The position numbers were made by a program, and so were the translations under genes. This document shows, in pieces, positions 9,043-42,820 of a stretch of 64,000 nucleotides of DNA (position 1 is its first letter; each line of letters begins with the position of its first letter). Under the pieces are notes generated by a model. The model worked only from the letters and a program-made list of their open reading frames with translations. It searched no databases and was not told the DNA's origin. The stretch comes from Pseudomonadales bacterium (GTDB lineage Bacteria > Patescibacteriota > Microgenomatia > UBA1400 > PJMF01), in contig JACKFX010000002.1 of NCBI GenBank assembly GCA_020632255.1, positions 82,905-146,904 of the forward strand, in the 5' to 3' direction.

Positions 9043-9300
9043 TTAAAAGGTCACCATTAAAAGCAAAAAGGTGGCTAAGGCAGCAACCCCGAGATACTCA
9101 AAAAAAACATGTGGTGAGATGTGTCGAGTTTTAACATGACTTATCACCCCCCAAGAAAAGTAAAACATACCCAAGGCAATGCTCATCATTCTCTGTTTTG
9201 TATGGTCTGGCCAAAACATAAAAAAGAGCACCAAAAACACAGCAAATCCAAAAAACAAGATTGAGTATGAAACCAGATGACGTTTGAATTCAGTAAACAT
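9043..9300 (-). CDS. Small membrane protein; hypothetical
   Basis: 85 aa with two or three hydrophobic helices. Its start overlaps the stop of the upstream CAP-domain gene by 1 nt. Confidence 0.35.
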   Translation of the reverse strand: MFTEFKRHLVSYSILFFGFAVFLVLFFMFWPDHTKQRMMSIALGMFYFSWGVISHVKTRHISPHVFFEYLGVAALATFLLLMVTF

Positions 9301-10334
9301 TAGCTAATCACTCCTCCCCTAAAGAATATGAGTACATATAAAACAATTAAAAATAGCGCTAAATGGGCTAAATTTTTACCAACAATACGAGCGATTCGTC
9401 GGTTATGAGCGATGAGCCCATCGTACGTTAAGGTGAAAAGCAAAAGAAGTGCAACAGCAATACCGAATGCTTTCCAGAGATTGTTTGGAGCAATCATAGG
9501 ACCTACAGATATCTCACCCCCTGGAACTACAATCGTTGACAGGACTTGTACTGGTCCGTCTGCTACAGATGGCTCCTCTTGAAATTCTAGTGCAACAAAA
9601 TCGTCTGCAACTGGAGCTTCTTCTGCTCTTGTTGCATCCCTAGTCTCTTCAACATTTTGTGTTCCCGCAATTTCAGCACTAGGATTCTGATTCTGAGCCA
9701 CAGCCACTGGGGACGTGGTTGGCTCTGGAACTTCTGCCGTGGCAATGACTGGGTCACCAAACATTTGCACAACGAGTGTTGTCTCGGTACCTAAGAGCGT
9801 TCCATTCACCACGGCAACTCCGATTTCTGAGTATCGCGGATTCATAATATTGGCACGATGGGTTGGTGAGTTCATCCAAGCTGCGACCATGCTTGGAGTG
9901 TCTAAAAAGTCTCTGGCCAGGTTTTCTCCTGCAACTTTATAGGTATACCTCACTTCACGCATAAAATCCCAGGGCTCTTTTCCACTGGGAGAAGTATGTG
10001 CCCAATATTGGGCAGAAAACATATCGGCAGCTTTGCGACGCGCTGCATCACTAAGAACCGGATTGTAGCTCACTTGTTGCAAACCAGATTTTGCACGTTC
10101 TTGATTGGTATACTGAATAACTTTATCGGTAGTGATGTCAGAAGCATACCCTAAAATGTGACCAAGTTCGGTATCCGAAAAAGAAATGGCATAGGTAACA
10201 ATAAAGAAGGCAATAGTTGTCCCCAACAACCCAAATAAATATTCAGGATGCAACAACTTGGAGCGATGATTGTTTGACCGTCGGGGATGAAATAAATGTT
10301 TAAATGATTTCTTGAGTGATTTCTTGACTGACAC
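9300..10334 (-). CDS. CAP/SCP/PR-1-like domain protein (YkwD-like), membrane-anchored
   Basis: 344 aa. CAP domain signatures (YTNQERAKSGL, HTSPSGKEPWDF, GENLARDF, MNSPTHRANIMNPRYSEIGVAVV). N-terminal TM and a C-terminal hydrophobic segment. Confidence 0.65.
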   Translation of the reverse strand: MSVKKSLKKSFKHLFHPRRSNNHRSKLLHPEYLFGLLGTTIAFFIVTYAISFSDTELGHILGYASDITTDKVIQYTNQERAKSGLQQVSYNPVLSDAARRKAADMFSAQYWAHTSPSGKEPWDFMREVRYTYKVAGENLARDFLDTPSMVAAWMNSPTHRANIMNPRYSEIGVAVVNGTLLGTETTLVVQMFGDPVIATAEVPEPTTSPVAVAQNQNPSAEIAGTQNVEETRDATRAEEAPVADDFVALEFQEEPSVADGPVQVLSTIVVPGGEISVGPMIAPNNLWKAFGIAVALLLLFTLTYDGLIAHNRRIARIVGKNLAHLALFLIVLYVLIFFRGGVIS

Positions 10335-10523
10335 ATGCTCATTATGCAGGTTTTTTTACTGAGTTTCAACAGAGTTGTGGCAAAGTACACTTTATTGTCA
10401 ATTTTGCATCTTTTTGTGTAATTTTGAAGACACAGATTTGCGATAGTAGCAGTAGCTACTTGAGTAAAGATGTAACACTCAAAATTGCCAAAGAGATGTG
10501 AAAGTGCAATGAATGTTAATTTG

Positions 10524-11543
10524 CTACAACTCTGATAAGACTGCTACCTGATGTCCAATTGCGTCTGTAATGAACGGCGGTCTCATGCCCGCAGTGAAGC
10601 TTTCAGGCTCTAAGTATCGAACCATTGGAAACTCTGTTGAATACGTTCCAGTGGTTGTAGTGATTATTTCGCCTGTTTGTGGGTGAACATAGAGTGGCTG
10701 CCACCAGCTGCCATTTGTTTGTATAACAAGATAGTGATAACCCCCATTACTCTCGATATATCGGGTGTAGAACAATTCCTCTGGACTAGGTAGAGGGTAA
10801 ACAGCCAAAACAAACTCGCTTACATTTCCAGCTTCATCACGCAGTACAATCGAACTTTGTTGCACTTCCCCATTTTTTTCGCCATCTGAGAGTTGAAACT
10901 GATACTTTCCACCAATCCAGGTAAACTCTCCAAGTGAGCTGCTTACAACTACCGGACTGGTATCAGAGACCGCTAACTCTAACTGAGTTTCTGCACTTAT
11001 GACGGCAACATCTTGGTGTTTGACAGTAATACTCACAGATTCTGAAAGTAAGTGTGACACAAAACTAAGTGTGTCTTGTCCAGCGGTGTTCGGCACCACA
11101 ACCACATGAGGTGAGGTATCTTGAATCTCAAGACAATCAAGCACAAGTACATCGTTGACTGCATTTTTTATAACCAAACACGGTTCTGATTGATAGCGGT
11201 TCGGAACTGCACTAAACATAATTTCCAGCACAGTGAAAGGTAGATTTGTTGAGACTTCGATTGATTTTTCTTCATTCCCAGTTAATTCCAGCTGAGTTTG
11301 CTGATCTTCACTTGAGTTTACATCAAGTGAATATTCCCGTTCACCGACAGTCAGAGTAACTACCGCAGTAGGTGCTTGAAAATCCGGTACCGTGAATTGA
11401 GCAACGTGTGCCTGAACAGTTCCAGAAAAAAATGAGTGGAGCTGTTGGGGACGAACAAGTAGCGACAAAGATAAGAATGCTAGTATCCCGGTGAATGATA
11501 CTCCCATGGTAACACTGTGACGACTACTTGTTCTTACTTTCAT
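10524..11543 (-). CDS. Secreted protein; hypothetical
   Basis: 339 aa. Signal peptide (MGVSFTGILAFLSLSLLV) followed by GTVQAHVAQFTVPDF. Lies 16 nt downstream of the TasA-like gene. Confidence 0.45.
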   Translation of the reverse strand: MKVRTSSRHSVTMGVSFTGILAFLSLSLLVRPQQLHSFFSGTVQAHVAQFTVPDFQAPTAVVTLTVGEREYSLDVNSSEDQQTQLELTGNEEKSIEVSTNLPFTVLEIMFSAVPNRYQSEPCLVIKNAVNDVLVLDCLEIQDTSPHVVVVPNTAGQDTLSFVSHLLSESVSITVKHQDVAVISAETQLELAVSDTSPVVVSSSLGEFTWIGGKYQFQLSDGEKNGEVQQSSIVLRDEAGNVSEFVLAVYPLPSPEELFYTRYIESNGGYHYLVIQTNGSWWQPLYVHPQTGEIITTTTGTYSTEFPMVRYLEPESFTAGMRPPFITDAIGHQVAVLSEL

Positions 11544-11559
11544 ACCTCACTACCCTTGC

Positions 11560-12114
11560 TTAATTGGTAGGCCAGGGAACTTGATCGCCTGTCTCTTTAA
11601 CTGCTACAACTGCCTCCACATCAAAACTTTGCATCATGTATTCAAGCCCTACTGACTCATCGAGCATCGTCTCAACTTGTACCGTCCATGATTGACCTGG
11701 AGATAGCTCCCATAATGCATCTTCCATCCCGAACTCACTGAAGAAAAACTCACCATCTAAAGCAAATGGGAAGTCATACACTGTTTGAAACCCTGAACCC
11801 GTATCAACAGCAAGCGAAACGCCACTAACTGCGTTCGGATCTAACAAGGGATCTGACCACATTGTCTCCAGCTGACTCTTCACATGTACGGGCACTGTAC
11901 CGACGTTTTCGATGGTATACAAAAACTGCTGTGTACCTCCTGGAATAATGTTCTGTCCATCAACCTCGACTGCTGAAACAATCACATCGGTTGATGCCGT
12001 CTCGAACCCACCCAACGGGGCCCGCTTTATAAAAGTAAAGTATGCCATCACTGTCCCCACAGACACGGCGAAAAGAGTGAAAACACTGGCGGCAATTAGC
12101 GTCTTTCTGCGCAT
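11560..12114 (-). CDS. TasA/camelysin (M73)-like secreted protein with a SipW-cognate-type signal region
   Basis: 184 aa. MRRKTLIAASVFTLFAVSVGTVMAYFTF resembles the GGGT(F/W)A(Y/A)F(S/N)D junction of camelysin and TasA. Beta-rich remainder. Confidence 0.45.
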   Translation of the reverse strand: MRRKTLIAASVFTLFAVSVGTVMAYFTFIKRAPLGGFETASTDVIVSAVEVDGQNIIPGGTQQFLYTIENVGTVPVHVKSQLETMWSDPLLDPNAVSGVSLAVDTGSGFQTVYDFPFALDGEFFFSEFGMEDALWELSPGQSWTVQVETMLDESVGLEYMMQSFDVEAVVAVKETGDQVPWPTN

Positions 12115-12192
12115 AAAAATCTCCTGTTAGTTAGTACTACAGGAATTCTAGGGCACGATTATGACAGGAAATGTAGCGTAGCTTGGGACGCA

Positions 12193-12219
12193 AATGGCGC
12201 CGGCAAAGCCGGCGCCATT
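12193..12219. repeat. GC-rich perfect hairpin palindrome AATGGCGCCGGC-aaa-GCCGGCGCCATT
   Basis: 12-bp arms with a 3-nt loop. Sits in the 127-bp spacer between the giant-protein stop and the TasA-like start. A CUUUUCC run follows on the + strand. Resembles the palindrome at 59595..59622. Confidence 0.6.
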
Positions 12220-12241
12220 CTTTTCCATTTACTACTCTGGA

Positions 12242-15200
12242 TTATGCTTCTTCGATAAACCCATAGGCTAGAAGTTTAGTTACCACAGCGGTCACTAGCG
12301 CAAGCCCTGGGAACCATTGGGTGATCATGGCTAACCATGAACCATCGACGTAACAGCCAGCATCTTTGAAGACGTAGAAGACTGCTACTACTCCAACGGT
12401 GATTGCTGCCACAACACCGAGCTTGAGTAAACCTGGAGTTCTGCGGAAGAACTCAAATGCAAGGATTGAGAGCAACTGCAATGCGAGCAAGATAAGTGGC
12501 AAGTAGTACTTCCAAGCTGAACAGCTGGTTGCACCGAGTACTTCACCTTCCTCAGCTGCCTCTTCTGAGCCAGATTTTTCTGAGCCTTCATCTGTAGCTT
12601 TTTCATCTTCCTGTGAAGATCCGTTGCTACGTGCGCCGAGAATTGCTCCTCGGATACTGTCGCCTTCAATGGTGTCAGTGACACCTAAGACTGTTTCAGT
12701 TCCAGTTGAAGGTTCTGGGCCAACTCGGAACGAGACCTTTGATTCTTTAAAGTTACCGGCATCATCCATAGCTTTAACTGAAAACTCCCAGACACCATCT
12801 TTAAGCTGATCAAGCTTGTGCTTGAAGGTATCGCGACCAACGGTTGCACCTCGAACAGTACCATCCTGATGCTTCCACTCGAGGACGTAACGAGTAACGT
12901 CACTGTCATCCTTTGGTCTTTCCCAAACACCATCTGCATCATCTGCAGTGATGTTTTCAACTCGAACGTTAAGTGGGTAGTCTGCAGGATCGGTGTTGTC
13001 GTAGCGAACATCTTTGACACCGAGATCAGAAACATTACCTACTGAGTCAACTGCTCGATAGTAGAGAATGTTTTGACGCTGTGATGGAGGCTTAATTGGA
13101 CCAGTGTAGGTTGTCCAGTTACCATCAGTAGTGGTATTCCATTGATACTCGATGTAATCAACATCATAGTTGTCAGATGCTGTCAGAGTAATTTCTGGTT
13201 CATAGAGTTTGTACCAACCGTTATTTCCATCTGGAGTTGCAGGATCGATTGTCAGTACGACCTCTGGAATAGTCTTGTCGTAGACAATCTTAATGGTATA
13301 GGTTGTCTCCACGTTGCCAGCGTTGTCGGTGGCGTGTGAAGTGATGTCGTAGATACCTTCTTCGACTGAAGCTTCAGGAATCTGATAGCTCCATGTGTCT
13401 GTACCGGTTGCAGGGACCTGTACTACGCCGGCCTGCCATTCCCCAGTGTCATGATTCCAGTAGACACTGTCAGTTGATCCAAATGGTGTGTACATGATCT
13501 CAAGATCGACTTTAGCTACACCTGAAGTTGCATCAGTTGCAGTTCCTTCAATCAGACCATCAAAACTGTTGGTTTCGACTTCTTCACCACTTTGAGCAGT
13601 GTTGAAGGTAGTAATCACGCTTGATGGATTGACTGTGTCATAAGTATAGGTAACAGCGTCACTCCATGCTCCAACATTACCAAGTGCATCATAGGCACGC
13701 ACTTGAATAGTGAAGTCTCCTTGTACATTTCCTGAAAGACCTTGATCACGATAGAGTCGTGATGCAGGGACCTCTCGATATGCTACCGTTGGAACACCGT
13801 TAACTAAGTACTCGTACTTAATCTCATACTTGTCCATACCGCTTGGGTCGGTCACTTCGGTCCACTCTGCACGGATGGTGTTTACGTTGAAGTACTCACC
13901 TGCAGTTGGAGCAGTGATTGTTGGGACGCCAACAGTATTATCTACCGTTACAGTAACCCAAGACCTTGAACCTGCATCTTTGTTGTCTGCAGCGTCTCGA
14001 GCCTCAAGCTTAATGGTGTAATCTCCACTTGGAAGTGATGAGGTATCCCAGCTTAGAAGTAACTTGTCTGTGAATGAAGTAGTATCATTAACAACTCCAG
14101 GACCTGCAACGGTTTGACCGATGCTGTTCTGAATCACAAACCAGTAGTGATGTGGATTATCGTCTGTGACCGTTCCACGAACATCTACCATACCATGAAC
14201 GATTCCTGCAGTTGGAGTTGTAACTTCGACATCAGGAGCCTGCCAGTCGGTAGTAATAGTACAAGTATTTGACCATCCTGAAGTGTTACCCAAAACGTCA
14301 ACAGATCGTACTTTAATATGATGTGCACCCTCATTAAGTGAACCACTGTACTGAGACTGGGTCAGGTTTGTTGACCAAACACCACGAGTGCCATTTGTCT
14401 TTGGATAGTCAATGTTGTACTCATAGTGATCAAATCCTGCTCCTGAATCTGTTGAGTCAGTCCAATCTACAGTGGTGTTATGAATGTTTGTTATTGCATT
14501 ACACTGTAAATCAGGTGAAACAAAACCTAAGACTTGTGGAGTAGTTGGAGCACTCTTATCGTAGTTAATTTCACAGAAATTACTCCACTCAGAAATTGGC
14601 TCACCTTCGTCAAACCTATTATTACTGTTAAGGTCTGAGTATGCTCTTACACGAGTTTTGTAAGTACCCTCGTTACCACCAAATGTTCCCCAACCTGCAT
14701 AAAAGTTGTCGTAATCATCAGTAAGTGTAGCTAGTACTGACATGTTGTCTGCATCAGCACTTGATGCTAAAGTTACTCTACTTGATTGACCCAGGATAAT
14801 GTCATTCAATCCACCAGGTCTCTGGTTGTGTCGAATATATTTAACATTACTTGCAGATGATGAAACATCAGTCCATGTAGCAGAGGTTTTAACACTGCCA
14901 TTAACTGAAGCTCCACAAACTAAGTCTACAGGGGTGTCAGTTAGTGAACTGCTGTTTTGGAGGTTAAATCCAAGCATTTCTGGAGTTTCTGGGTTAGCTT
15001 GAGTGTAACCTACTCCCAAATATGCTGCTGAGTTTCCATCTAGAGTAGTTTCCCAACATCTTTCAAACTCATCAGATGCAGAAGATTGATTTTCAACAAC
15101 CACTGCATCAGCATAACCTGATGGTGTTTGGTTATTAACATTGACGACATGTTGACCGAGCGCCGCAGGAGACTGGTTATAGCCAACCTTTTCGACACCA

Positions 15201-18187
15201 CATACTCTGTAAGTATTGTTTTCATTAAGAAGACCTTCAAAAGTATACTGTCCAACTTCTGCAGTCTTTGGGGTGGTTTGCTCTTCAACAAAATTCCATG
15301 AGCTGTCATATAAACGAACAGTAAATCCGTCCATTCTTCCATCTGGGTGATCTCCATCTGAAACAAGTCTTAATCCATTATTGTTCTTATCAATAAAGGT
15401 TCTTCCAATAATTTTTCCTAGACAGTCACCTGCATATGATGGATTGTTAAGATCATTAGATGTTAACCAAGGACAGTAAGAAACATTCGTTGAAACTGCA
15501 TCTCCTGTTCCAGGTCCCTCTCCGTCTGGACCACTTGCGTCTCCCCACCAGTTTTTACTTCCATCTACTGATGAAACTGACATGTTGATAAGTCCACCAT
15601 AGTAAGAACCATCAGAGCCAATATAAGTTTGTGCATTTCCTGAAATAATGTTATTTGTAACTACAACATTGGTTGGTCCAGCATTATTTTTTCCTGGCTC
15701 GCCAAGTCTAATACCTCTTTCATTATTAGTAACGGTATTGCCTGTAATGGTTACATTAGAAAGCGTAGCTGGATGTGCTCCATAGGTTGAGCCATCATCA
15801 CGGGCTTTAATCTCAAGTGCAGCACCTTCTTTAACATCATAAGCATTTCCGCTAAATGAACTACCAGTTACAGAAATATTTTGATAATTTTCTTCACCTT
15901 TTAAATTAATGTCGAAACCAGCGTTCCAATCATTATTCCAGAAAGCTGTGTTTCTTCCATTTTCAATGACACTAACATTTGAGAAGCTCGTATCTGAGAG
16001 TTTCTCAACGTAGAGCCCCTTGGCATCGTTATAACTGAAACTTGTTGATTCAACAGTAATATTTGTCGCATTACTTCCACCTGGACCCCAATTACCGTGT
16101 TTGGCAAAATACCAACCATAGGTAAGATGATCAAATGCCGAATCTACAATGTAAAAATCATCAATTGAGCCATTAGTTGAAACCTTAAATCCAGTTTCGC
16201 TTTCAGTATCATTATTCTGATTAGTACCAACAATGTGGACATTATTTAACTCAACATGGCTTACTGTTTTGTCATCTCGGACTTCTAATCCATAGACATT
16301 GACAGGTTCTATGCGCAAATCTTTAATTAACAATTTATCTGTAGAATCTGCTCCAGACGCTTCAAGATTTATAACTCTAAGATTAGATTCCTTTTGTAAA
16401 ACAGTATTTGTGTTTGAATCTGAACCAGAGCCAACTCCAATAAGATCTACATTTTTATTCACAGTGATATTTTCAGTAAACAAACCAGCAAGGATATTGA
16501 TCTGATCATTATCGGTCGAAGCATCAATTGCATCTTGAATTTTCATACCTTTAAGAACCCAATATGTGTCCTCTGCTGTGTTATAAATTAAAATGTCTGT
16601 GTAACTAAATAATCCTGAGCTCATCAAGCCCATTGCAAAGTTTTTGGCATCAGCCAAGCTTTCCTGGTAATACCATTGCATGTAGTCATCGCCTTCACGG
16701 AATGTGTAAACAACATATCCTAATGAGCTAGGTGTGGTAACAGATCCAAATGCTGGATATGTTGGAGGATCTTTTTCGAGTAAAAACTTTGCTGTTTCTG
16801 CTGCTGAAAATGAACCTGAAAATACGATGTTATCTGGACTAACACTTACTGCCTGAACAGAAACACCTCCCCATGGATTACCTGAAGTTGAAATGTTATG
16901 TACAGTTACATTTTGTGAATCCAAAAGCATTAATCCAAATCCACCAGCTGTATCATACACTTCAATATCACTTAATGATGCTGAGGTAACTGTATTTAGA
17001 TCAATTCCAGTCTTTCCTGAATCTTGAACTTTTATATTCTCTAGAGTCACATTATCAACGTGTGAAACTTTAAAACCATAATGGTTGCTACCAATAAGTG
17101 TTAAATCTCTAACTGTGGTATCGTCTCCAAAGTTGCTAATCGCATAACCAGAGAGTCCTTCTGCATCAACAATTGTCACATCCTTACCTGCACCATCAAT
17201 AGTAAGAGACTTACCTTGAAGATTAAGTGTTTCTTCAAAGTTTCCATTTTGAACATAAATAGTTGAGCCATTAGTTGCGGCATTAATTGCCTGTTGAATT
17301 GTGTTATAACAATCTGTTGCTGTAGATGCACCTGCATCAATACATGCTTGGCCAGATAAAGCTGAAGGTGTAGTGACTACAAAGATTGTGAAATGAGTGA
17401 GACCACTCACTTTTTGTTGTTTTCCAACTACTAAACTTTCTACATAGTTTGCTGATTTCAGAGATGAAAGATCTTCTGCATACTTTACATCTGTTTCATC
17501 ACTCCCCTCCGGCCGTGGCAACGTGAGTTCATACTCAAATGTGCCATCTTCCATGCTCGAAGTGATGTCGTAGGCGACAGTGCTGAGAGCGCCAAGTTCG
17601 GCGACTTGCTCGTCGGTTAGGGTGATTTCTTCGATTGAGAGTGTTCCAGGGTTTTCTGGCAACTTGGTAAAGGTGATGGTAACGTCATCATTTTGTGGAG
17701 CTACGTACTTGGTGCCAAGTTCTACTTGGGCAACGGTTGCGACTGCACCGGAGCGAAGCCAAAGTACACCATCAGTGATTTCGTATTCTGCCTTGTAGTT
17801 AGCGTTGCTTAACACAACGGTACCAGAGACAACTTCGTCAGCGACACAGTCTTCACCAGAACAGGTCCCGGCATAGATAGTCTCGCTAAAAGTACCATCG
17901 GTAACTTCAGCAGTGCCTATGACAGCTTCTTCAGGAAGTTCTGGATCAGAGCCACGGTAAGAAAGGACGTAGTCAACTGCGTCACTGGCAGCACCAGTTA
18001 AAGTAAATTCATTTGAGTCTTTATCGAAAGAGAGTGCAACTCCACTAACAGCAACTTCTTGAACCTCGGTAGCAGCGTAGGCAGGAGTTACTAAAAATGC
18101 AGCCGGAGCCACAGTTTGAAAGAGCATCAACACAATGTTGAAGAGGGCGTATACCTGTTGAATATGTTTTTTGAGCATTTTTATCAT
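12242..18187 (-). CDS. Giant cell-surface protein with parallel beta-helix repeats, Ig/FN3-like domains and a C-terminal membrane anchor. The start could be 18247, 18187 or 18178.
   Basis: Uninterrupted 2001-codon ORF. Sec signal peptide (MLKKHIQQVYALFNIVLMLFQTVAPAAFLVTPAYA). NxxG beta-helix repeats (GNTVTNNERGIRLG, NNIISGNAQ). Many T/S/D/N-rich beta domains. Two hydrophobic helices at the extreme C-terminus. An AAGGAAG SD lies upstream of the in-frame ATGs at 18187 and 18178. Confidence 0.8.
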   Translation of the reverse strand: MIKMLKKHIQQVYALFNIVLMLFQTVAPAAFLVTPAYAATEVQEVAVSGVALSFDKDSNEFTLTGAASDAVDYVLSYRGSDPELPEEAVIGTAEVTDGTFSETIYAGTCSGEDCVADEVVSGTVVLSNANYKAEYEITDGVLWLRSGAVATVAQVELGTKYVAPQNDDVTITFTKLPENPGTLSIEEITLTDEQVAELGALSTVAYDITSSMEDGTFEYELTLPRPEGSDETDVKYAEDLSSLKSANYVESLVVGKQQKVSGLTHFTIFVVTTPSALSGQACIDAGASTATDCYNTIQQAINAATNGSTIYVQNGNFEETLNLQGKSLTIDGAGKDVTIVDAEGLSGYAISNFGDDTTVRDLTLIGSNHYGFKVSHVDNVTLENIKVQDSGKTGIDLNTVTSASLSDIEVYDTAGGFGLMLLDSQNVTVHNISTSGNPWGGVSVQAVSVSPDNIVFSGSFSAAETAKFLLEKDPPTYPAFGSVTTPSSLGYVVYTFREGDDYMQWYYQESLADAKNFAMGLMSSGLFSYTDILIYNTAEDTYWVLKGMKIQDAIDASTDNDQINILAGLFTENITVNKNVDLIGVGSGSDSNTNTVLQKESNLRVINLEASGADSTDKLLIKDLRIEPVNVYGLEVRDDKTVSHVELNNVHIVGTNQNNDTESETGFKVSTNGSIDDFYIVDSAFDHLTYGWYFAKHGNWGPGGSNATNITVESTSFSYNDAKGLYVEKLSDTSFSNVSVIENGRNTAFWNNDWNAGFDINLKGEENYQNISVTGSSFSGNAYDVKEGAALEIKARDDGSTYGAHPATLSNVTITGNTVTNNERGIRLGEPGKNNAGPTNVVVTNNIISGNAQTYIGSDGSYYGGLINMSVSSVDGSKNWWGDASGPDGEGPGTGDAVSTNVSYCPWLTSNDLNNPSYAGDCLGKIIGRTFIDKNNNGLRLVSDGDHPDGRMDGFTVRLYDSSWNFVEEQTTPKTAEVGQYTFEGLLNENNTYRVCGVEKVGYNQSPAALGQHVVNVNNQTPSGYADAVVVENQSSASDEFERCWETTLDGNSAAYLGVGYTQANPETPEMLGFNLQNSSSLTDTPVDLVCGASVNGSVKTSATWTDVSSSASNVKYIRHNQRPGGLNDIILGQSSRVTLASSADADNMSVLATLTDDYDNFYAGWGTFGGNEGTYKTRVRAYSDLNSNNRFDEGEPISEWSNFCEINYDKSAPTTPQVLGFVSPDLQCNAITNIHNTTVDWTDSTDSGAGFDHYEYNIDYPKTNGTRGVWSTNLTQSQYSGSLNEGAHHIKVRSVDVLGNTSGWSNTCTITTDWQAPDVEVTTPTAGIVHGMVDVRGTVTDDNPHHYWFVIQNSIGQTVAGPGVVNDTTSFTDKLLLSWDTSSLPSGDYTIKLEARDAADNKDAGSRSWVTVTVDNTVGVPTITAPTAGEYFNVNTIRAEWTEVTDPSGMDKYEIKYEYLVNGVPTVAYREVPASRLYRDQGLSGNVQGDFTIQVRAYDALGNVGAWSDAVTYTYDTVNPSSVITTFNTAQSGEEVETNSFDGLIEGTATDATSGVAKVDLEIMYTPFGSTDSVYWNHDTGEWQAGVVQVPATGTDTWSYQIPEASVEEGIYDITSHATDNAGNVETTYTIKIVYDKTIPEVVLTIDPATPDGNNGWYKLYEPEITLTASDNYDVDYIEYQWNTTTDGNWTTYTGPIKPPSQRQNILYYRAVDSVGNVSDLGVKDVRYDNTDPADYPLNVRVENITADDADGVWERPKDDSDVTRYVLEWKHQDGTVRGATVGRDTFKHKLDQLKDGVWEFSVKAMDDAGNFKESKVSFRVGPEPSTGTETVLGVTDTIEGDSIRGAILGARSNGSSQEDEKATDEGSEKSGSEEAAEEGEVLGATSCSAWKYYLPLILLALQLLSILAFEFFRRTPGLLKLGVVAAITVGVVAVFYVFKDAGCYVDGSWLAMITQWFPGLALVTAVVTKLLAYGFIEEA

Positions 18188-18371
18188 GCTTCCTTTTCTA
18201 AGTGCACACCTGCTACGCGTGCATTTTACTGTTAGGTACAAAGACAAGACAGACGAAAAAATCGCCCTTCAAATCCAATCCTACTATATCAGAATGGAAC
18301 TTGCAAGGATGAAACTCGACGGATATATCAATAAATACACACTACTTACACATCTGGGAAAACAAATATAC

Positions 18372-28831: not shown

Positions 28832-29902
28832 TTATTTCTCTCTCTCTGCAACAAAACGAGTCATCACCATCAGCTGCTTTTTAAACTCTTTCGAAACGGG
28901 TAGTTTGTTTGTTTTTGTAGCAATGCTATGTATGTAGGTATCGATCTTCTTCTGCATTATTTCTGTCACACCAAACTCATCATGTAACTGCTGAATACTA
29001 TGAATTTCTTGTTGAGTTAAAGCTTGTTTTCCATACAAAGCGCTCACTTCTGTTCGTTGTTTTTTAGGAAGTTTAGAAAGCGCTTTAAAAAAGTAGTATC
29101 GGTGCATGGTTTTTTTATTTTCTATCACATCCCCGCCGACTGGTTTCCCGGTAACCATCTCATCTCCAAACAAACTTAAGTGGTCATCTCTAATTTGAAA
29201 AATCATCCCGATAGACTCCAAAATGGCTTCAAGATCTTTGAGCGCATTTTCAGAAACTCCACACAGTAATCCTGCGGCAAGAACCGGCATCACAAACGTG
29301 TAGCGAGCGGTTTTATATTTGTAGACATTCTCAATTTCTTTCAGTTTATTACTCTGACTCATTTCATGAGCAAACACCACATCTTGCCATTGAGCAAAAC
29401 CAACGTGAGCATATTCTTGAGCCATGAAATACCAAACTTTTTGAGCATCATGTACTACCGAACCAATTTGTTCAAAGGCCAAGAAAAAAACAATATCTGT
29501 GGCACACATAACTGCACTCGGAGCATATACACCTGGTCGTCTAAACAACTGTTGTTGCGCATGTTTATATTCTTTTGAATGTAGTGCCACCATACCTCTA
29601 CGGGAATCGTCTTGATCCATAAAATCATCTTGAATAAGCAAAGAACTGTGAATCAGCTCGATACCAGCTGCAACTGGGAGATATTTTTCTAAAGAAGCGT
29701 CTGGATCAAACTCAAAAACTGCTTCGAGAAATAGGGACCCACGAACCGTCTTTCCTGATTGTACAAATAATTCCAAATATTCAAATAACGAAGAAGTAAA
29801 TTGATGAGCCACAAACGCTTTTCGCTTGCTTTGTAAAAGAGAAAGCAGGTATGTATCAATATCGTGTTTATGTCTCAAAAAAGTCAGAACATTTTCTGGC
29901 AT
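28832..29902 (-). CDS. crtE: Polyprenyl diphosphate synthase (probable GGPP synthase, CrtE-like)
   Basis: 356 aa. First Asp-rich motif LIQDDFMDQDDSRRG, second Asp-rich motif FQIRDDHLSLFGD, a KT residue pair, and GK..G.D. Lies in an operon with the carotenoid genes. Confidence 0.7.
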   Translation of the reverse strand: MPENVLTFLRHKHDIDTYLLSLLQSKRKAFVAHQFTSSLFEYLELFVQSGKTVRGSLFLEAVFEFDPDASLEKYLPVAAGIELIHSSLLIQDDFMDQDDSRRGMVALHSKEYKHAQQQLFRRPGVYAPSAVMCATDIVFFLAFEQIGSVVHDAQKVWYFMAQEYAHVGFAQWQDVVFAHEMSQSNKLKEIENVYKYKTARYTFVMPVLAAGLLCGVSENALKDLEAILESIGMIFQIRDDHLSLFGDEMVTGKPVGGDVIENKKTMHRYYFFKALSKLPKKQRTEVSALYGKQALTQQEIHSIQQLHDEFGVTEIMQKKIDTYIHSIATKTNKLPVSKEFKKQLMVMTRFVAEREK

Positions 29903-30560
29903 AGAGAGCCTTTACTATCCAGAGATACAAAAGTGCGGCATACCCAAAATCCTCAATTGGAATAGTGCCCACCAGTGCCCCGGTTTTATATATATCAGTA
30001 TAGAGAACGATTGGTAAAGATGTCAGGTAGTAATTAAAAAGTAATGTTGTAAAAAGTGTAAAAAGTAAACCAATAGTAACTGCTGTTTGATTCAATAACC
30101 GTGTACCAGTAAGTGCAAGTCCTAATACTACGATAACCGTGTACCATTTTTCCTGAACAAAAGAAAAGTACAGCCCCACTACAAGAGAAGTTCGATATAA
30201 AAGACTCAGTGCCACTGACACCTTTCTTGGGATTACAATCTGTTTATCTGGGATATGATCATGCAAATTCTTTAAAAAAGTGACTAATGCATAGGGTACC
30301 GTCACAAAAAAAAGGAGCTCTTCAATGGGAAGCCTCAAGAATGGTACATGAGTAAACCCGAGCACAAAGGTGGGGTTAAAACTCCACCACACATCGGTAA
30401 CCAAATAATCCCACACAATAAAAACCAATGAAATCGGAAGAAAGCTGAAAACTTCAGTTTTTGTTGGCACCTTCATTTTTGGGTAGAGCATCTTTCCTAG
30501 TATCAAAGAAGTCAGAACCACAAGATGAAAAAAGAAATAAGCAAAATGTGAGATCTGCAT
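29868..30560 (-). CDS. Lycopene cyclase domain protein, fused CrtYc/CrtYd type
   Basis: 230 aa, about 6-7 TM. Two internal repeats each carry a PxEE/PxED motif (LPIEELLFF and IPIEDFGY), characteristic of heterodimeric-type lycopene cyclases. Confidence 0.6.
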   Translation of the reverse strand: MQISHFAYFFFHLVVLTSLILGKMLYPKMKVPTKTEVFSFLPISLVFIVWDYLVTDVWWSFNPTFVLGFTHVPFLRLPIEELLFFVTVPYALVTFLKNLHDHIPDKQIVIPRKVSVALSLLYRTSLVVGLYFSFVQEKWYTVIVVLGLALTGTRLLNQTAVTIGLLFTLFTTLLFNYYLTSLPIVLYTDIYKTGALVGTIPIEDFGYAALLYLWIVKALYARKCSDFFET

Positions 30561-30562
30561 GA

Positions 30563-31474
30563 TTACCTGAAAGCCTCTCGTAACGCGACTACCAATAACG
30601 TACCAAACACGCGATACTTACTTGGTTTGACTTTTTTTCTGAATACAATGTGGGGGTCAGCCTCGATTTGATCTGCCGTCCATGCATAGAGCCGTGCCGC
30701 TGTCGCAATAGGAATGCGGTATCTGTATGGAATATACCCATATCCTTTTTCTGCCTCGGTCTGAGTAATTCTATAGAGAGAAATTTCATCCCGAATGAAT
30801 GCTGCAAATTGGTGATGTCGGTTTGAAGTTTCAGGAATATCACACAACTTACTCAACCCATACTTCTCGAGCACCTCACTAGCCATGTAGGTGCGATGTA
30901 ACTCACAGTCTTCGTGAATGTCTCTAATAAAATTTATTTGCTGCATCGCAGCCCCTTGCTTACGAGCTGCTATTTGTGCCTGCTTTGGTAATCCTAAAAT
31001 TTGACTCATCATCAATCCAATCACTTCGGCACTACCATAAATATACTGATTCACTTCTTTGCGGGTTGTATATCTAATCCAGTCCCCATCTGCTGATAGA
31101 TCACTCATCATCGAATATAAAAAGGCATGTACCCATAAAAATGAAATATGATATGCAAACATTAGTTCTACAAACGGTTGAATAATATCAGTGTATTCAG
31201 TTCTCTGGTGATACTCGGCAACTAGATGCCGTCCAGCCTTCCAAGAACTAGAAACTTTTTTAGCAAGCGCGTAGTACTCACAAATCCTTTGGGTTTCTTG
31301 AACAAACGCAGCAAATGTTTCAGGCTGCTGGGGCACTTCATCAACAAAGTCGTCAGCTGTTCGAACATACGCATAGAGTGTCGCCACCTTTTCCCAGGTG
31401 TCTTTAGGGAAAAACAAACTACTATAAAAATAGGTAGTACTAGCATTCTTAAAAATGAGTTTTTTTCTTGACAT
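30563..31474 (-). CDS. crtB: Phytoene synthase (squalene/phytoene synthase family)
   Basis: 303 aa. YAYVRTADDFVDE (first Asp-rich motif), GSAEVIGLMM, and QGAAMQQINFIRDIHED (second motif). Confidence 0.8.
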   Translation of the reverse strand: MSRKKLIFKNASTTYFYSSLFFPKDTWEKVATLYAYVRTADDFVDEVPQQPETFAAFVQETQRICEYYALAKKVSSSWKAGRHLVAEYHQRTEYTDIIQPFVELMFAYHISFLWVHAFLYSMMSDLSADGDWIRYTTRKEVNQYIYGSAEVIGLMMSQILGLPKQAQIAARKQGAAMQQINFIRDIHEDCELHRTYMASEVLEKYGLSKLCDIPETSNRHHQFAAFIRDEISLYRITQTEAEKGYGYIPYRYRIPIATAARLYAWTADQIEADPHIVFRKKVKPSKYRVFGTLLVVALREAFR

Positions 31475-32976
31475 TACGCACTATCTTTTTGAATTTCATC
31501 AATAACATACTGTGCAGAAAGCAGCACCATCGGCACCCCGATTCCTGGTTGAGTAAACTGTCCAGCAAAATAGAGATTCGATAACTGCTTCGCTTTCATT
31601 CGAGGTCGCATAAACACGGACTGCAGCAACGAATGCGATAGTCCCAGAGCATTGCCTTTGTAAGCGTTGAACTCATGAGCAAAATCTTTTTGAGCAAAGA
31701 TTTTTTTATACACAATATGCTTTTGAATTTCAGCTCCTGTTGTCGCCTCAACGTGATCAAGTACGTGCTCCACGTACTCATCAACTCCGTGCTGCTTTGT
31801 TTGGACACTCACAGGAACCAGTATAAACAGGTTTTCTGCATTCTTAGGTGCCACTGTATGGTCTGTAACTGATGGAGCACAAACGTAATAACAGGGTTTT
31901 TTTGGAAACTCAGTAGAATTTTGAATCGTACTAAAATGATCATTCCAATCATCCTGGAAATAAAAGTTGTGATGCTGCAACTCAGGAATTTTCTTGGAAA
32001 GACCAAGATATACTAACACACTCGAAATTGCATATTCTCTGTTTTCCCAGTAGTCTTTAGAGTACTCTTTGTACTCATTTGGAAGCAGATGTATATCGAA
32101 GTAGGCATAATCGGCAGTAGTTACAAAGATGTCAGCATCATATGTTCCCTGTGTCGTATCCACGGAAGTAACTCGCTTTGTTTCATCGTCAATGTGTACG
32201 CTCGTAACAGCTTCTTCCGTCTTGATAGTGACTCCAAATTCTTTGCATAGTGCTTCCAAAGCCTTGGGTAACTGACCAATGCCTCCCTCTGGATACCAAA
32301 TTTTTCCTTTAAAATCTGAGGCAATTAAAATGCTATAGAGAGCTGGTGTTCTCTTTGGAGATCCACCTAGAAACACGGTATGAAACTGAAGAATTTTTTG
32401 TATCAACGGGTGTGATAGTTGTGTCGTGATAAATCGCTCATAACTTTGAAACGGATTAAACTGGCTGAGAAGCCGTAATCCGGCTAACATTGTTTTTGGA
32501 GTAAGCAATGAAAGAAACGAGTCATACTTTCGTGCCAGTAACTCTATAGAAAGTGTATAAGCGACGTTCGTTTTGGTAATCAAAGAAACAAGCTTTGCTC
32601 TGCTTCCTGGCTCAAGAGTCTCAAAAAGTCTTAAGTTTTTTTGTATATTTGAAACAATATCAATTGGTTTGTGGGAATCAGAAAAGACTCGATACTTTGT
32701 CGATAGCTCACGTAAACTGTAGTAGTCACTACTTTTTTTCCCAACAGAAGCAAAAAATGACTCGATCACTTCTGGCATCATGTACCATGACGGACCCATG
32801 TCGAAAGTGAACCCTTTCTGCTTAAAAACTCGAGCGCGGCCACCAAGGTCTTTGTTTTTCTCAATCAGAATGACTGAATACCCACGGTACGCTAAGCCTG
32901 CCGCAGTGGCTAGGCCAGCTAAACCACCTCCTATCACAACGCATTTTTTTTGCTCTGAATCAGGTATACTTTTCAT
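31474..32976 (-). CDS. crtI: Phytoene desaturase (FAD-dependent, CrtI family)
   Basis: 500 aa. N-terminal Rossmann VVIGGGLAGLATAAGLAYRGYSVILIEKNKDLGGRA, then FDMGPSWYMMPE. The C-terminal end has a CrtI-like pattern. Its TAA stop overlaps the crtB ATG as TAATG. Confidence 0.85.
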   Translation of the reverse strand: MKSIPDSEQKKCVVIGGGLAGLATAAGLAYRGYSVILIEKNKDLGGRARVFKQKGFTFDMGPSWYMMPEVIESFFASVGKKSSDYYSLRELSTKYRVFSDSHKPIDIVSNIQKNLRLFETLEPGSRAKLVSLITKTNVAYTLSIELLARKYDSFLSLLTPKTMLAGLRLLSQFNPFQSYERFITTQLSHPLIQKILQFHTVFLGGSPKRTPALYSILIASDFKGKIWYPEGGIGQLPKALEALCKEFGVTIKTEEAVTSVHIDDETKRVTSVDTTQGTYDADIFVTTADYAYFDIHLLPNEYKEYSKDYWENREYAISSVLVYLGLSKKIPELQHHNFYFQDDWNDHFSTIQNSTEFPKKPCYYVCAPSVTDHTVAPKNAENLFILVPVSVQTKQHGVDEYVEHVLDHVEATTGAEIQKHIVYKKIFAQKDFAHEFNAYKGNALGLSHSLLQSVFMRPRMKAKQLSNLYFAGQFTQPGIGVPMVLLSAQYVIDEIQKDSA

Positions 32977-36282: not shown

Positions 36283-38526
36283 ATGTTTCGTAAACTTCTC
36301 ATCCCGTTTGTTATCATTGCTTCTATCTTTGTTAGCTATGTCTCATTATTTCATAACGACTCCGTTGAAAACGTTGCTCTCATTTCACAACTCTTTGGCA
36401 CACATGGCATCTGGATCTTAAACCTGCTGTTAGTAGTGATGGTTATCCCTATTTCACTTTCACTTATGGAAATCATTACCGGTGAGTTTGGCCTAGAACG
36501 CTTCAAACGAATTGCTGCTATCAGTATTGGTATGACTACGCTTAGTTTTGCTGCTTTGCAATTTATCGGAGCAATTGCAACGTCTTCTGCAGAAGGTGCC
36601 ACTGTCGTAGTAGAAGTCTTTCAACAAATTGCCCACTTTGCCACTCATGGTGAACTAGAACAATACGGCCTGGTGGGAATGCTCACGTCAGATGCTTCCG
36701 GTCCTTGGAACTCCAGCATCTTCCCACTGCTCATTATGATTATATGGTTAATCCGTCGAAAAACAGTTGGCATCGAAACAAAGCAACTTCATGTTCCGAT
36801 GATTTTTCAGTGGATTTTGTACGCTCAACAATTTTTCTTCGGTCTTGATTTACAGTACACGCTACTGGAAATTATCTTGATGGGTATTACTGGATCACTG
36901 TTTGTCTGGGGAATGATCAACTTCCTCGTTTCTATGTTTAGAGAAGCAGAGCAAGCAGAAGCCAAAGCAGCAGCAGAAATACCTGAAAAAGAAGAAGCCA
37001 CTAAGAAACAAAACTTCTATAGCCGTATGATTCATGGTATTTCCCACCTAACTTTTGAAGTCCTAACTTTCAATCCCTTTAACAAAAAAGTAGATACTGC
37101 AGATGAAAAAATTCAAAAAAAACGTGGTGGCTACGGAAACATCGGTCGCGGTTACGTTACCTTGAACGGGCTACAATTAACGCTAGCCATGACCGTTGCC
37201 ATGTTTGCCCTTGTCAGTGCAACTCAATTTCTTGCAGTCCAACTACGCATGAGTGATGCCGAAGCTGCGCTCTTTGGTACGGCTGGTCTTACGAGCGCTC
37301 CAGAAGCATTTGTTGCTCTTGCTGTCGGTCCCTATATTAACGCACTCCTCCTCGTAGGGAGCAACATCATTGATGGTTGGATGTCTGCTCTAGGACAAAC
37401 TGTCCTCTTAGGATATGCCGAAATCGCGAGTGGTGGTCATATTACCGCAATACCCTTGCATCCAGCTATTCGCTATCTCACTTTTCTCTCATGGACACAG
37501 GGCATGCTCGTTTGGGCTGCATTAACACTCTATGCTCACACCATTCACACTACTTTAAATAAAAAAATCATTTCCATTACCTCAATAGTTTTGCTGTCAG
37601 TTGCCATCTTGTACTACTTTGGTGGGGCATGGTTTAGTGCTCAAGCCTTGGGATATGGCGCTGAGTATGCTCAAGAGAGCTTTATCGTCAAATCGATTGG
37701 TAGCATTATTAACCTATTAACAATGATAAAAGCACAACAAATCGTATTGGTACTCAACATTATTGGCCTGGGAGCATTGGCTTTCTGGTGGAGTGGAATT
37801 CTGGAAAAACTCTCCTCACTTCTTCAAACAGAAGAGGACCAACGCATCTCTGGAGCAATCACTGAATTACATGGAAAGATTTCAAAGCATTTAGCACGAG
37901 AAAATCAACAAGTTATCATCGTTCTTGATACGAGTTCTGACATGAACGAGAAAACATTTTTTTTCAAAAACAAATGGATAGATCTTGTCTTCCGTCAAGC
38001 TGCTGCCTTTGGCCTAATTCTTGATGATGATGGCCATATTCCGGTCTATACGACCAGTGATGGTGCAGTTAAAAAGATCAAACACTTGCTCACCCAAAAA
38101 AATGCGGATACCTTTATTGAAAAATTCGTTGGCAGAAACACCGCAGGAAAAGTGAGCTACACTCCTGTCATTTCTGAAATATTTGCCGAATACAAAGATA
38201 CCCTCACAACTGAGCATGACCCAGTGCTCGTACTCTTTATCACTGCTGGAGGTGGCACCGATGCTGCAGAAGCAAACAAGCTTTTCACAAAAATGGAGTC
38301 CTATCCCATTTTTGTGCAGTTTATTGAAATTCACGGTGACAAACCACATAAAAATGCTCAAGTAGTCACCGGAATTGCGAATAAACCTGGAAAAATCATC
38401 GATAACTCTGGTATTTCTTCACTACCATTGTTTAGGTTAACCGACGCAAGTCAAATTGTCGAAGAAGTCCTCAACGAATACCCAGGCTACCTTGAAAAGG
38501 CTCAAAAAGCAGGAATTCTCGACTAA
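36283..38526 (+). CDS. Polytopic membrane protein with a C-terminal von Willebrand factor A-like domain
   Basis: 747 aa. About 12 hydrophobic helices in the first 480 aa. C-terminal IIVLDTSSDM (MIDAS-like), VLFITAGGGTD and IFVQFIEIHGD follow the vWA beta-strand pattern. Confidence 0.55.
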   Translation: MFRKLLIPFVIIASIFVSYVSLFHNDSVENVALISQLFGTHGIWILNLLLVVMVIPISLSLMEIITGEFGLERFKRIAAISIGMTTLSFAALQFIGAIATSSAEGATVVVEVFQQIAHFATHGELEQYGLVGMLTSDASGPWNSSIFPLLIMIIWLIRRKTVGIETKQLHVPMIFQWILYAQQFFFGLDLQYTLLEIILMGITGSLFVWGMINFLVSMFREAEQAEAKAAAEIPEKEEATKKQNFYSRMIHGISHLTFEVLTFNPFNKKVDTADEKIQKKRGGYGNIGRGYVTLNGLQLTLAMTVAMFALVSATQFLAVQLRMSDAEAALFGTAGLTSAPEAFVALAVGPYINALLLVGSNIIDGWMSALGQTVLLGYAEIASGGHITAIPLHPAIRYLTFLSWTQGMLVWAALTLYAHTIHTTLNKKIISITSIVLLSVAILYYFGGAWFSAQALGYGAEYAQESFIVKSIGSIINLLTMIKAQQIVLVLNIIGLGALAFWWSGILEKLSSLLQTEEDQRISGAITELHGKISKHLARENQQVIIVLDTSSDMNEKTFFFKNKWIDLVFRQAAAFGLILDDDGHIPVYTTSDGAVKKIKHLLTQKNADTFIEKFVGRNTAGKVSYTPVISEIFAEYKDTLTTEHDPVLVLFITAGGGTDAAEANKLFTKMESYPIFVQFIEIHGDKPHKNAQVVTGIANKPGKIIDNSGISSLPLFRLTDASQIVEEVLNEYPGYLEKAQKAGILD

Positions 38527-41766: not shown

Positions 41767-42363
41767 GTGGGTAAAGGATCAGAACAACTCAATTACAGAG
41801 GAAATACTCACCAAATACACCTACGCTGTGGTATGATTCAAACTGTCATGAAGCTAGATTCTTATCACCCTACCGTAGCCACTATTCTGTCTCTCATCTC
41901 CCAACACACCATGTGGCACGAAATATTTGAACATAAACCTGTACGCACCAGTGAAGAAGCTGCTGCAGTTCGAACAGGATACTCGTTGGAGCAAGGGGCC
42001 AAAGCCCTCATCATTAGAGTCAAAAAAAATGCGACTCAAAAATTCTTTGTGATGGTAGTACTAGCTGGTGATAAAAAATTTGATTCAAAAAAAGTCACCA
42101 AACTCCTGAATGCAAAAAGCATTCGCTTTGCGACAGTCGATGAAGTTACCCAAATTACCAACGGTGTTCAAGTTGGTGGAGTTCCACCTTTTGGAAAGTT
42201 GTTCTCCATCCCAACGTACCTCGACGTATCCATTTCTGCGCAAGACAAAATAATTTTCAACGCCGGAGATCGATCTTTATCGGTTGCTCTTTCCACAAAA
42301 GATTACTTGCAACTTAATCCTCCTGAGAAAATTATTGACGTTACTGACGATACGACAAAGTAA
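41767..42363 (+). CDS. YbaK/ProX-type aminoacyl-tRNA deacylase domain protein. The start may be 41833 or 41848.
   Basis: GVQVGGVPPFG and adjacent conserved residues typical of YbaK-like editing domains. The 198-aa track ORF probably over-extends the N-terminus. Confidence 0.55.
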   Translation: MGKGSEQLNYRGNTHQIHLRCGMIQTVMKLDSYHPTVATILSLISQHTMWHEIFEHKPVRTSEEAAAVRTGYSLEQGAKALIIRVKKNATQKFFVMVVLAGDKKFDSKKVTKLLNAKSIRFATVDEVTQITNGVQVGGVPPFGKLFSIPTYLDVSISAQDKIIFNAGDRSLSVALSTKDYLQLNPPEKIIDVTDDTTK

Positions 42364-42820
42364 CCACGAGCTCGGTCGTGCTCCAAGGAAACTGGTGAGC
42401 ATTCAACACTACTTGAGCTTGTTGATCAGATCCGAGTTGCTCACTTCTCCCTCTTTCAACCTCATTCACCTGAGTTACTGTATATCTGTAGATACCATTA
42501 TTAGTGCCGTAAAGAACTACTTCATCCCCGAGATATAGCTCATTCAATACTCCAAAAAGGTGGCTTGATGCAACCAGACGGACAGTATTTTCATCACCAA
42601 GCCCTACCTCATTTGTTTGTGTAATAGCTTCGTCCGCACCAATTGCCTGAGTTATTTCAAGTCGTTCAAAAATTATCTGCTCTGGCTTAACGGCGTAACG
42701 AGCACTCCTTTCGGGAGATGCCTGAACCACAGTTTGAGATGGTACTATGGAAAGCACTAAACCTATGCCAAGTCCCAATCCCATGCTCGCGCTGACCATT
42801 ACTCTTTTAAGTGTATTCAT
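42341..42820 (-). CDS. Secreted protein; hypothetical
   Basis: 159 aa. Signal peptide MNTLKRVMVSASMGLGLGIGLVLSIV. Confidence 0.4.
   Translation of the reverse strand: MNTLKRVMVSASMGLGLGIGLVLSIVPSQTVVQASPERSARYAVKPEQIIFERLEITQAIGADEAITQTNEVGLGDENTVRLVASSHLFGVLNELYLGDEVVLYGTNNGIYRYTVTQVNEVERGRSEQLGSDQQAQVVLNAHQFPWSTTELVVTLSYRQ

Follow-up and report, generated by a model that had tools for sequence, protein, structure and literature searches.

Does the surface-protein locus at positions 9300-18247 of the DNA shown above (64,000 nucleotides (nt), hereafter the 64-kb window) encode a single apparatus, or does it contain a fibre-forming module of its own? Cells of the candidate phyla radiation (CPR; Patescibacteria) are thought to be attached to other microbes, and little is known of their surface structures apart from type IV pili. 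The preliminary description had assigned four minus-strand open reading frames (ORFs) to this locus, coding for a giant protein of 2001 amino acids (aa), a 184-aa protein likened to TasA and camelysin, a 339-aa secreted protein and a CAP-domain protein. All four ORFs were recovered at the coordinates given for them, with a spacing of exactly 16 nt between the genes of the 184-aa and 339-aa proteins, and the strings quoted from these two proteins, VSVGTVMAYFTF and SGTVQAHVAQFT respectively, are present. Our analysis covered the window and, for comparison, eleven related loci (numbered with an L). We consider it likely that the core of the locus is a two-gene TasA-type fibre module of a Microgenomates-type (Woesebacteria/Pacebacteria-like) CPR bacterium, in which the 184-aa protein would be the fibre subunit and the 339-aa protein its accessory protein, or partner. 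The locus would then represent a donor-strand fibre module that standard annotation has missed.

The 184-aa protein and its family

The 184-aa protein belongs, as a divergent representative, to the TasA/camelysin/BsaA family. Three close homologues were found, and a partial protein that is closely related carries the annotation of a Candidatus Woesebacteria bacterium. The orthologue P0003, with 56% identity, clears the PF12389 model (Peptidase_M73/camelysin) (25.8 bits; gathering score 22.5). When 1.84 billion representative proteins were searched with a profile, 106 relatives emerged, about 70 of them full-length with 175-210 aa. Among the 76 aligned members of the family, 53 match PF12389 (best E=1.6e-19), 64 match TIGR04090 (the BsaA family of SipW-dependent matrix proteins), 38 match TIGR04088 (the SipW-cognate signal domain) and 29 match the TasA model. 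Many Firmicutes proteins with names of the TasA or BsaA family came up in another profile search, and one homologue, P0022, already carries the NCBI name 'TasA family protein [Patescibacteria group bacterium]'.

Comparison with known structures led to the same family. The 76-member profile matched TasA from Bacillus subtilis in the PDB (5OF1/8AUR, E=1.3e-6) as well as the archaeal AbpX (E=8.5e-4); this larger profile was needed, a PDB sequence search with a four-sequence profile having returned no match. The AlphaFold2 model of the 184-aa protein is all-beta, and its best PDB match in Foldseek is the cryo-EM structure of the TasA fibre, 8AUR (E=2.2e-6); a TasA-type jelly-roll/beta-sandwich fold is thereby supported. 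The likeness to TasA and camelysin proposed in the preliminary description is supported by the orthologue P0003, the 76-member profile and the first-ranking fold match. Of the profile comparison that it had suggested against TasA/camelysin and TIGR04088, the indirect part succeeded, through orthologues and the family profile, and the direct match of the 184-aa protein failed; the structure prediction, for which the lack of any TasA-like fold had been named as the contrary outcome, placed 8AUR first.

Within the protein, the AYF[TS] junction and the approximately 15 residues that follow it are the best-conserved part. The signal helix (residues 6-24) leads to the junction VMA|YFTF and to an all-beta body, the combination of a hydrophobic helix and an A-[YFW]-F-[ST/N/D] junction being present as VMAYFTF. 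Ala24 and Phe26 are conserved to at least 90% across the 76 homologues, and among eight orthologues 7 of the 16 positions from 24 to 39 are invariant, compared with 21 of the 168 positions elsewhere. Segment 25-39, the predicted mature N-terminus, is disordered in the AlphaFold2 monomer model and aligns, in the 76-member profile, with the stretch of TasA whose end is FASGTLDL. In TasA, fibre polymerisation relies on a donor strand made up of residues 28-38, which come immediately behind the position cut by SipW, the main contacts being F29, I32 and F39 (PMC9674648). The earlier suggestion that AYFT marks the signal junction of the family agrees with its conservation in the 76 homologues, which is not that of a motif lost in an unconserved Sec signal.

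Additional, weaker TasA-like paralogues adjoin the module in three related loci: L012 (5256-5927, HMM (hidden Markov model) E=5e-9), L013 (2274-2897, E=9e-7) and L005 (3021-3797, E=6e-6). At their C-termini, those of L012 and L013 have a hydrophobic anchor, and they might serve as base subunits fixed in the membrane. No paralogue of this kind was detected in the window by the TasA-like HMM.

The accessory gene and the signal peptidase in related loci

The 339-aa protein begins with a signal helix, continues with a TasA-like module of junction and strand, and ends in an all-beta, fast-evolving body. The N-terminal pattern common to the partners comprises the signal helix, an [AS][YFW][FYW] junction, a hydrophobic-x-hydrophobic strand about 11 residues further on, and G/D-[WF]-x-x-P. 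The junction is kept in the partners of ten related loci, nine of which also keep G/D-[WF]-x-x-P. A partner-type gene of 317-574 aa directly follows the tasA-like gene or sipW in 10 of the 11 related loci, and in L011 a 237-aa LTD protein with a TasA-like N-terminus takes the partner's place after sipW.

The relation between the two proteins was quantified by hhalign. Nine partner N-termini aligned with the 76-member TasA-like family with a probability of 83% and P=8.6e-6, in a register that pairs QQLHSFFSGTVQAHVAQFTVP of the window with GTVMAYFTFIKRAPLGGFETA. None of 200 column shuffles reached the observed score of 34.0 (mean 9.2, maximum 17.2). The distance from the aromatic pair to the next hydrophobic motif is 11 residues in the subunit and in the partner alike. 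The AQFT stretch pointed out in the preliminary description does exist in the 339-aa protein, but it is the second motif, aligned with GFET of the 184-aa protein; the junction itself is SFFS (residues 37-40), as in SFFS…QFTV. In the same way, the idea that the 339-aa protein is itself a TasA-like subunit stands for the approximately 20 residues after the signal helix, which resemble the family, and falls for the remainder, where no TasA-like body was detected.

Beyond the N-terminal module, the partners diverge strongly. Between the window and L002, the identity of the partner is the lowest in the block (30.5%), compared with 56% for the TasA-like protein and 73-91% for housekeeping genes. The partner bodies of L005, L007 and L008 show marginal similarity to that of the window, and what we claim as shared is limited to the N-terminal module. 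We propose that the 339-aa protein is a TapA/AbpB-like accessory protein, because its N-terminus carries the junction and strand module of the subunit. TapA starts the fibre through strand complementation by its N-terminus, which is similar to the donor strand of TasA (PMC9674648, PMC10151520), and the same nucleator relationship has been proposed for AbpB, whose gene comes right after that of AbpA (PMC9245690). The analogy draws on three features of the 339-aa protein, namely an adjoining gene, a signal helix and a donor-strand-like N-terminus; searches of Pfam, NCBIfam and PDB sequences found no homology of its body to TapA or AbpB.

TasA fibres are known from operons with a dedicated peptidase, and four of the eleven related loci carry a SipW-type peptidase gene directly after the tasA-like gene. 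In L009 (138 aa) and L013 (146 aa), SipW is encoded between the tasA-like gene and the partner, with 66.9 bits for TIGR02228 against a cut-off of 51.85 in the former and an HMM E value of 3.5e-30 in the latter. In L011, a 217-aa SipW directly follows the tasA-like gene and scores 90.1 bits against the same cut-off of 51.85. The fourth case is a fusion: in L007 (GCA_964607125.1, CAZSHY010000009.1, 2431-3993), a single ORF of 520 aa joins a SipW domain in frame to the partner. The SipW catalytic domain of this protein reaches 64.1 bits with TIGR02228, and a junction-like segment, SAYYQASQVASV (SAYYQ...), stands directly after it, so that self-processing of the fusion may be a possibility. The remaining seven related loci, and the window with them, have no sipW at this position.

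In the window, the S26 serine-box motif occurs in none of the six frames, and a lineage-specific SipW HMM, applied unfiltered to the six-frame ORFs of at least 40 aa, gave no match (best E=0.91). Both searches agree with the preliminary description, which had seen no SipW-type signal peptidase in this stretch. Since relatives have sipW immediately behind the tasA-like gene, the locus of the window is most readily interpreted as a derivative of a tasA-sipW-accessory operon, its clade having lost sipW from this position. The possibility that an S49/NfeD peptidase replaces SipW in processing was considered but discarded, as the window lacks this peptidase and L007 possesses both.

The fibre model and its alternatives

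In the mechanism that we favour, the subunit and the accessory protein would both be exported by Sec. A type I signal peptidase would then cut the subunit after Ala24 (VMA|YFTF) and the accessory protein around Ser37 (LHS|FFSG), the enzyme being the general LepB or a SipW whose gene would lie outside the window. The residues at each predicted cut (V-M-A|Y and L-H-S|F) satisfy the -3/-1 rule, and the junction motif is equally conserved in loci with and without sipW. By analogy with the TasA, BsaA and archaeal Abp fibres, the freed N-terminus of each subunit would be the donor strand that enters the beta-sandwich of the following one, yielding an extracellular filament; donor-strand exchange has precedents in TasA (PMC9674648) and BsaA (PMC11580942). 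Following the same analogy, the accessory protein would give the first donor strand (nucleation), which would place it at a fibre end, where its variable body could have the role of adhesin or anchor. For a CPR bacterium, a role of such a fibre in attachment to the host cell is plausible.

Three known systems can be set beside this model. The first is the tapA-sipW-tasA operon of B. subtilis (5OF1, 8AUR), whose major subunit is homologous to that of the window at the profile and fold level. Both subunits display an A-x-F junction, a donor-strand segment and an F-x-[ST]-G-x-L strand, and both loci have an adjoining accessory gene with a subunit-like N-terminus; some of the window's relatives also have a SipW-type peptidase gene within the operon. 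Conversely, TasA has 261 aa whereas the subunit of the window has 184 and remains below curated HMM thresholds, the window has no sipW, its subunit gene comes first and its host is a CPR bacterium. Past the N-terminal principle, the accessory protein of the window has no detectable sequence similarity to TapA.

The second is the sipW-bsaA-bsaB-bsaC locus of Clostridium perfringens. TIGR04090, the BsaA model, is the closest NCBIfam model for the window family, and both subunits are small, with approximately 180-200 aa. BsaA has an N35-E56-K74 isopeptide triad. The predicted donor segment 25-39 of the window protein contains no asparagine, and the window has neither a vWA partner nor sipW. The third is formed by the archaeal AbpA/AbpB and AbpX (9SJ2, 9RHP), donor-strand fibres of the TasA superfamily, AbpX being reached by our profile as described above. 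As in the window, the Abp operon has a larger signal-peptide gene (AbpB) immediately downstream and no dedicated signal peptidase, and for AbpB a role as adhesin and as donor of the first strand has been proposed. The Abp systems are archaeal and much more divergent, and their bundling and other operon genes have no counterpart in evidence in the window.

Several results weigh against the fibre model. The 184-aa protein has no Pfam match even at E<=10, PF12389 included, and no TIGR04088 match of its own; its sole NCBIfam match, to TIGR04090, stays below threshold (E=0.016; 15 bits, cut-off 60). Its AlphaFold2 model is of moderate confidence, with a predicted local distance difference test (pLDDT) value of 61, and the TM-score of this model against 8AUR is 0.38-0.46. 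The similarity of the partner to the TasA-like family spans only about 21 columns, and the AlphaFold2 model of the 339-aa protein, computed from three near-identical sequences, is unusable though all-beta (pLDDT 37). The signal peptidase that would process the fibre was not located in the 64-kb window.

Regarding alternatives, the giant, 184-aa, 339-aa and CAP proteins might constitute one integrated surface or host-attachment apparatus, with the giant protein as fibre or S-layer and the others accessory to it. All four are secreted or membrane proteins encoded on one strand, the order giant, TasA-like, partner, CAP is preserved in L001/L002, and the CAP gene lies 22-66 nt past the partner in several relatives. 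Several observations speak against it. The tasA-like gene has a canonical AGGAG 7 nt ahead of its ATG, a GAGG precedes the ATG of the 339-aa gene, and on account of that AGGAG and the 16-nt spacing these two genes very probably share one transcript. The giant gene is separated from them by a spacer of 127 nt and by a strong hairpin (folding energy -29.8 kcal/mol, z=-5.8; U-tract poor), which is conserved in L001/L002 (the Pacebacteria relative), where one double substitution, CCGGC/GCCGG to CCCGC/GCGGG, is compensatory. This hairpin is probably a terminator or a 3' stabiliser of the giant gene transcript. Apart from the window, only L001/L002 have the giant gene ahead of the tasA-like gene, and S49/NfeD genes are found there in L003, L004, L007 and L008.

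On the other side, the CAP gene of the window is located 190 nt downstream of the partner and has its own promoter-like site. The synteny runs on past the CAP pair through genes for an NTP-transferase, RRF, RseP, DUF3048 and SecDF; as it reaches RRF, RseP and SecDF, the adjacency of CAP reflects lineage synteny and is not specific. The CAP gene and the gene of a small (85-aa) membrane protein beside it come after the partner in 9 of the 11 related loci, and in L011 and L012 the TasA-like genes have no adjoining CAP gene. A single four-gene unit, as the preliminary description had it, is thus not retained, given a giant gene that is confined to the closest relatives and followed by a hairpin and a CAP gene accounted for by housekeeping synteny, and we consider an integrated apparatus unlikely. 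It is the tasA-like module whose place in the chromosome is constant throughout a group of Microgenomates; among GTDB representative genomes, a search with the four-sequence alignment found one related locus, in a Candidatus Pacebacteria metagenome-assembled genome.

The 184-aa protein could also be a surface or secreted beta-sandwich that does not polymerise, either a camelysin-type metalloprotease or a monomeric matrix protein. The historical name of the family, Peptidase_M73, speaks for it, as does a structural model that is only moderate in confidence. We rejected the protease role suggested by the 'M73' name, the protein having a single histidine and no HExxH motif. The top conservation falls in an N-terminal segment that is disordered in the monomer and matches the TasA donor strand, and an adjoining accessory gene mimics this donor segment, which argues against the non-polymerising reading and leaves it with little credit.

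It seems hardly more than a slim chance that the 339-aa protein is unrelated and that its N-terminal likeness to the TasA-like junction is coincidental. The full-length TasA-like HMM did not detect the body of the protein, the first hhalign comparison, of the whole 339-aa protein with a four-sequence TasA-like alignment, gave nothing meaningful, the protein itself has no Pfam or NCBIfam match, and the profile of the partner family found no match in the PDB. These negatives would suit a chance resemblance, but the later alignment falls in the expected register at a score that shuffled columns never attained, the 11-residue spacing is the same in both proteins, the junction recurs in partner after partner, and in L007 the partner segment lies directly behind a SipW domain.

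Finally, that the signal helices of the 184-aa and 339-aa proteins would remain in place without SipW, keeping both on the surface by a type II anchor, is very improbable: neither the 64-kb window nor the majority of the related loci contains a signal peptidase gene of any type, but that search covered 64 kb of the genome, the junctions obey the -3/-1 rule and are as well conserved without sipW as with it, and AbpA is reportedly matured, like AbpB, by a generic signal peptidase with no dedicated one nearby (PMC9245690).

Returning to the TasA-type module, the window protein and its closest orthologues belong to the same family and phylum as catalogued Patescibacteria PF12389 proteins, but escape the Pfam and NCBIfam thresholds. 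We regard as modestly new the partner family, the three states of sipW (separate, fused or absent) and the fixed genomic position, none of which, to our knowledge, has been described before. TasA homologues in Patescibacteria had already been noted, this phylum being among those listed with PF12389 homologues by Wang et al. 2022 (PMC9245690). The series of sipW states offers a natural set for asking how far TasA-type fibres need a dedicated peptidase. With a conserved donor-strand-like N-terminus and a hypervariable body, the members of the partner family are candidate tip adhesins.

Neighbouring genes and other features of the window

The features of the locus are collected in Table 1, with the two segments on which the donor-strand comparison is based.

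Table 1. Features of the locus, with positions in the window.
Feature	Position	Strand	Description
Giant secreted protein gene	12242..18247	-	2001 aa as listed from TTG
G+C-rich hairpin	12193..12219	-	13 bp; between giant and tasA-like genes
tasA-like gene	11560..12114	-	184 aa; predicted major fibre subunit
Codons for residues 25-39 of the 184-aa protein (YFTFIKRAPLGGFET)	11998..12042	-	predicted mature N-terminus and donor strand
Accessory (partner) gene	10524..11543	-	339 aa; begins 16 nt past the tasA-like stop
Codons for partner residues 36-56 (HSFFSGTVQAHVAQFTVPDFQ)	11376..11438	-	junction and donor-strand-like module
CAP-domain gene	9300..10334	-	344 aa; membrane-anchored
85-aa membrane protein gene	9043..9300	-	2 transmembrane segments; start overlaps the CAP stop

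The giant protein contains the Pfam domains Beta_helix (PF13229, E=1e-10), Big_13, Big_3_3 and fn3, and NCBIfam adds three OmpL47-type barrel domains and partial matches to the NosD-like TIGR04247 over two stretches. Its signal peptide ends in ...TPAYA|ATEVQ, and its C-terminus has two strong hydrophobic segments and a weaker one, forming a double to triple anchor. The AYA signal, beta-helix, Ig/FN3 modules and C-terminal anchor attributed to it beforehand are all confirmed, with the anchor possibly triple instead of double, and the domain content is that of a surface adhesin, as had been supposed. The TTG start listed for this ORF is probably wrong: the ATG at 18187 follows AGGAAG and gives a conventional n-region (MIKMLKK...), for a protein of about 1981 aa, and this is the probable true start. 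We treat the giant protein as a separate, separately transcribed adhesin-type surface protein, because its gene occupies this place in the window and L001/L002 alone, an S49/NfeD peptidase being encoded there in four relatives.

This membrane protease (NfeD1b_N/Peptidase_S49) is encoded upstream of the tasA-like gene at 8496-9581 in L003, 1226-2359 in L004, 662-1780 in L007 and 403-1479 in L008. In the window and L002, its place is taken by the giant adhesin and a major facilitator superfamily (MFS) transporter.

The CAP domain foreseen in the 344-aa protein is confirmed by PF00188 (E=2e-20, 74.2 bits against 21.1). With TIGR02909 (YkwD), the protein scores 116.9 bits, under the cut-off of 171, and is therefore not a YkwD equivalog. 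It has one N-terminal and two C-terminal transmembrane segments and shares 70% identity with its L002 orthologue. The 85-aa protein encoded next to it has no Pfam match. Its start abuts or overlaps the CAP stop also in L003, L005, L007, L008, L009 and L013, which suggests that the two genes are translationally coupled and encode a conserved membrane protein pair.

A functional link between this pair and the fibre is possible. In its boldest form, the CAP protein and the coupled 85-aa protein would be a membrane platform that anchors, assembles or helps process a SipW-independent fibre, with the hypervariable accessory protein as host-contacting tip adhesin; we hold this to be a long shot. If true, it would be the first defined role in filament biogenesis for the bacterial CAP superfamily, and the fibre would be a second CPR attachment organelle beside type IV pili.

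Three further regions of the window were noted. On the minus strand, positions 28832-32976 encode a polyprenyl synthetase, a lycopene-cyclase-domain protein, a squalene/phytoene synthase and a CrtI-like flavin amine oxidase, a set that looks like a carotenoid/squalene-type isoprenoid pathway and is unusual in a reduced CPR genome. A 159-aa ORF at 42341-42820, also on the minus strand, has a sub-threshold Sortase match (22.9 bits; gathering score 26.6), and no LPXTG-type substrate was noticed among the proteins of the locus. Lastly, positions 36283-38526 encode a 747-aa protein with a C-terminal vWA-TerF-like domain (PF10138, E=1.9e-23).

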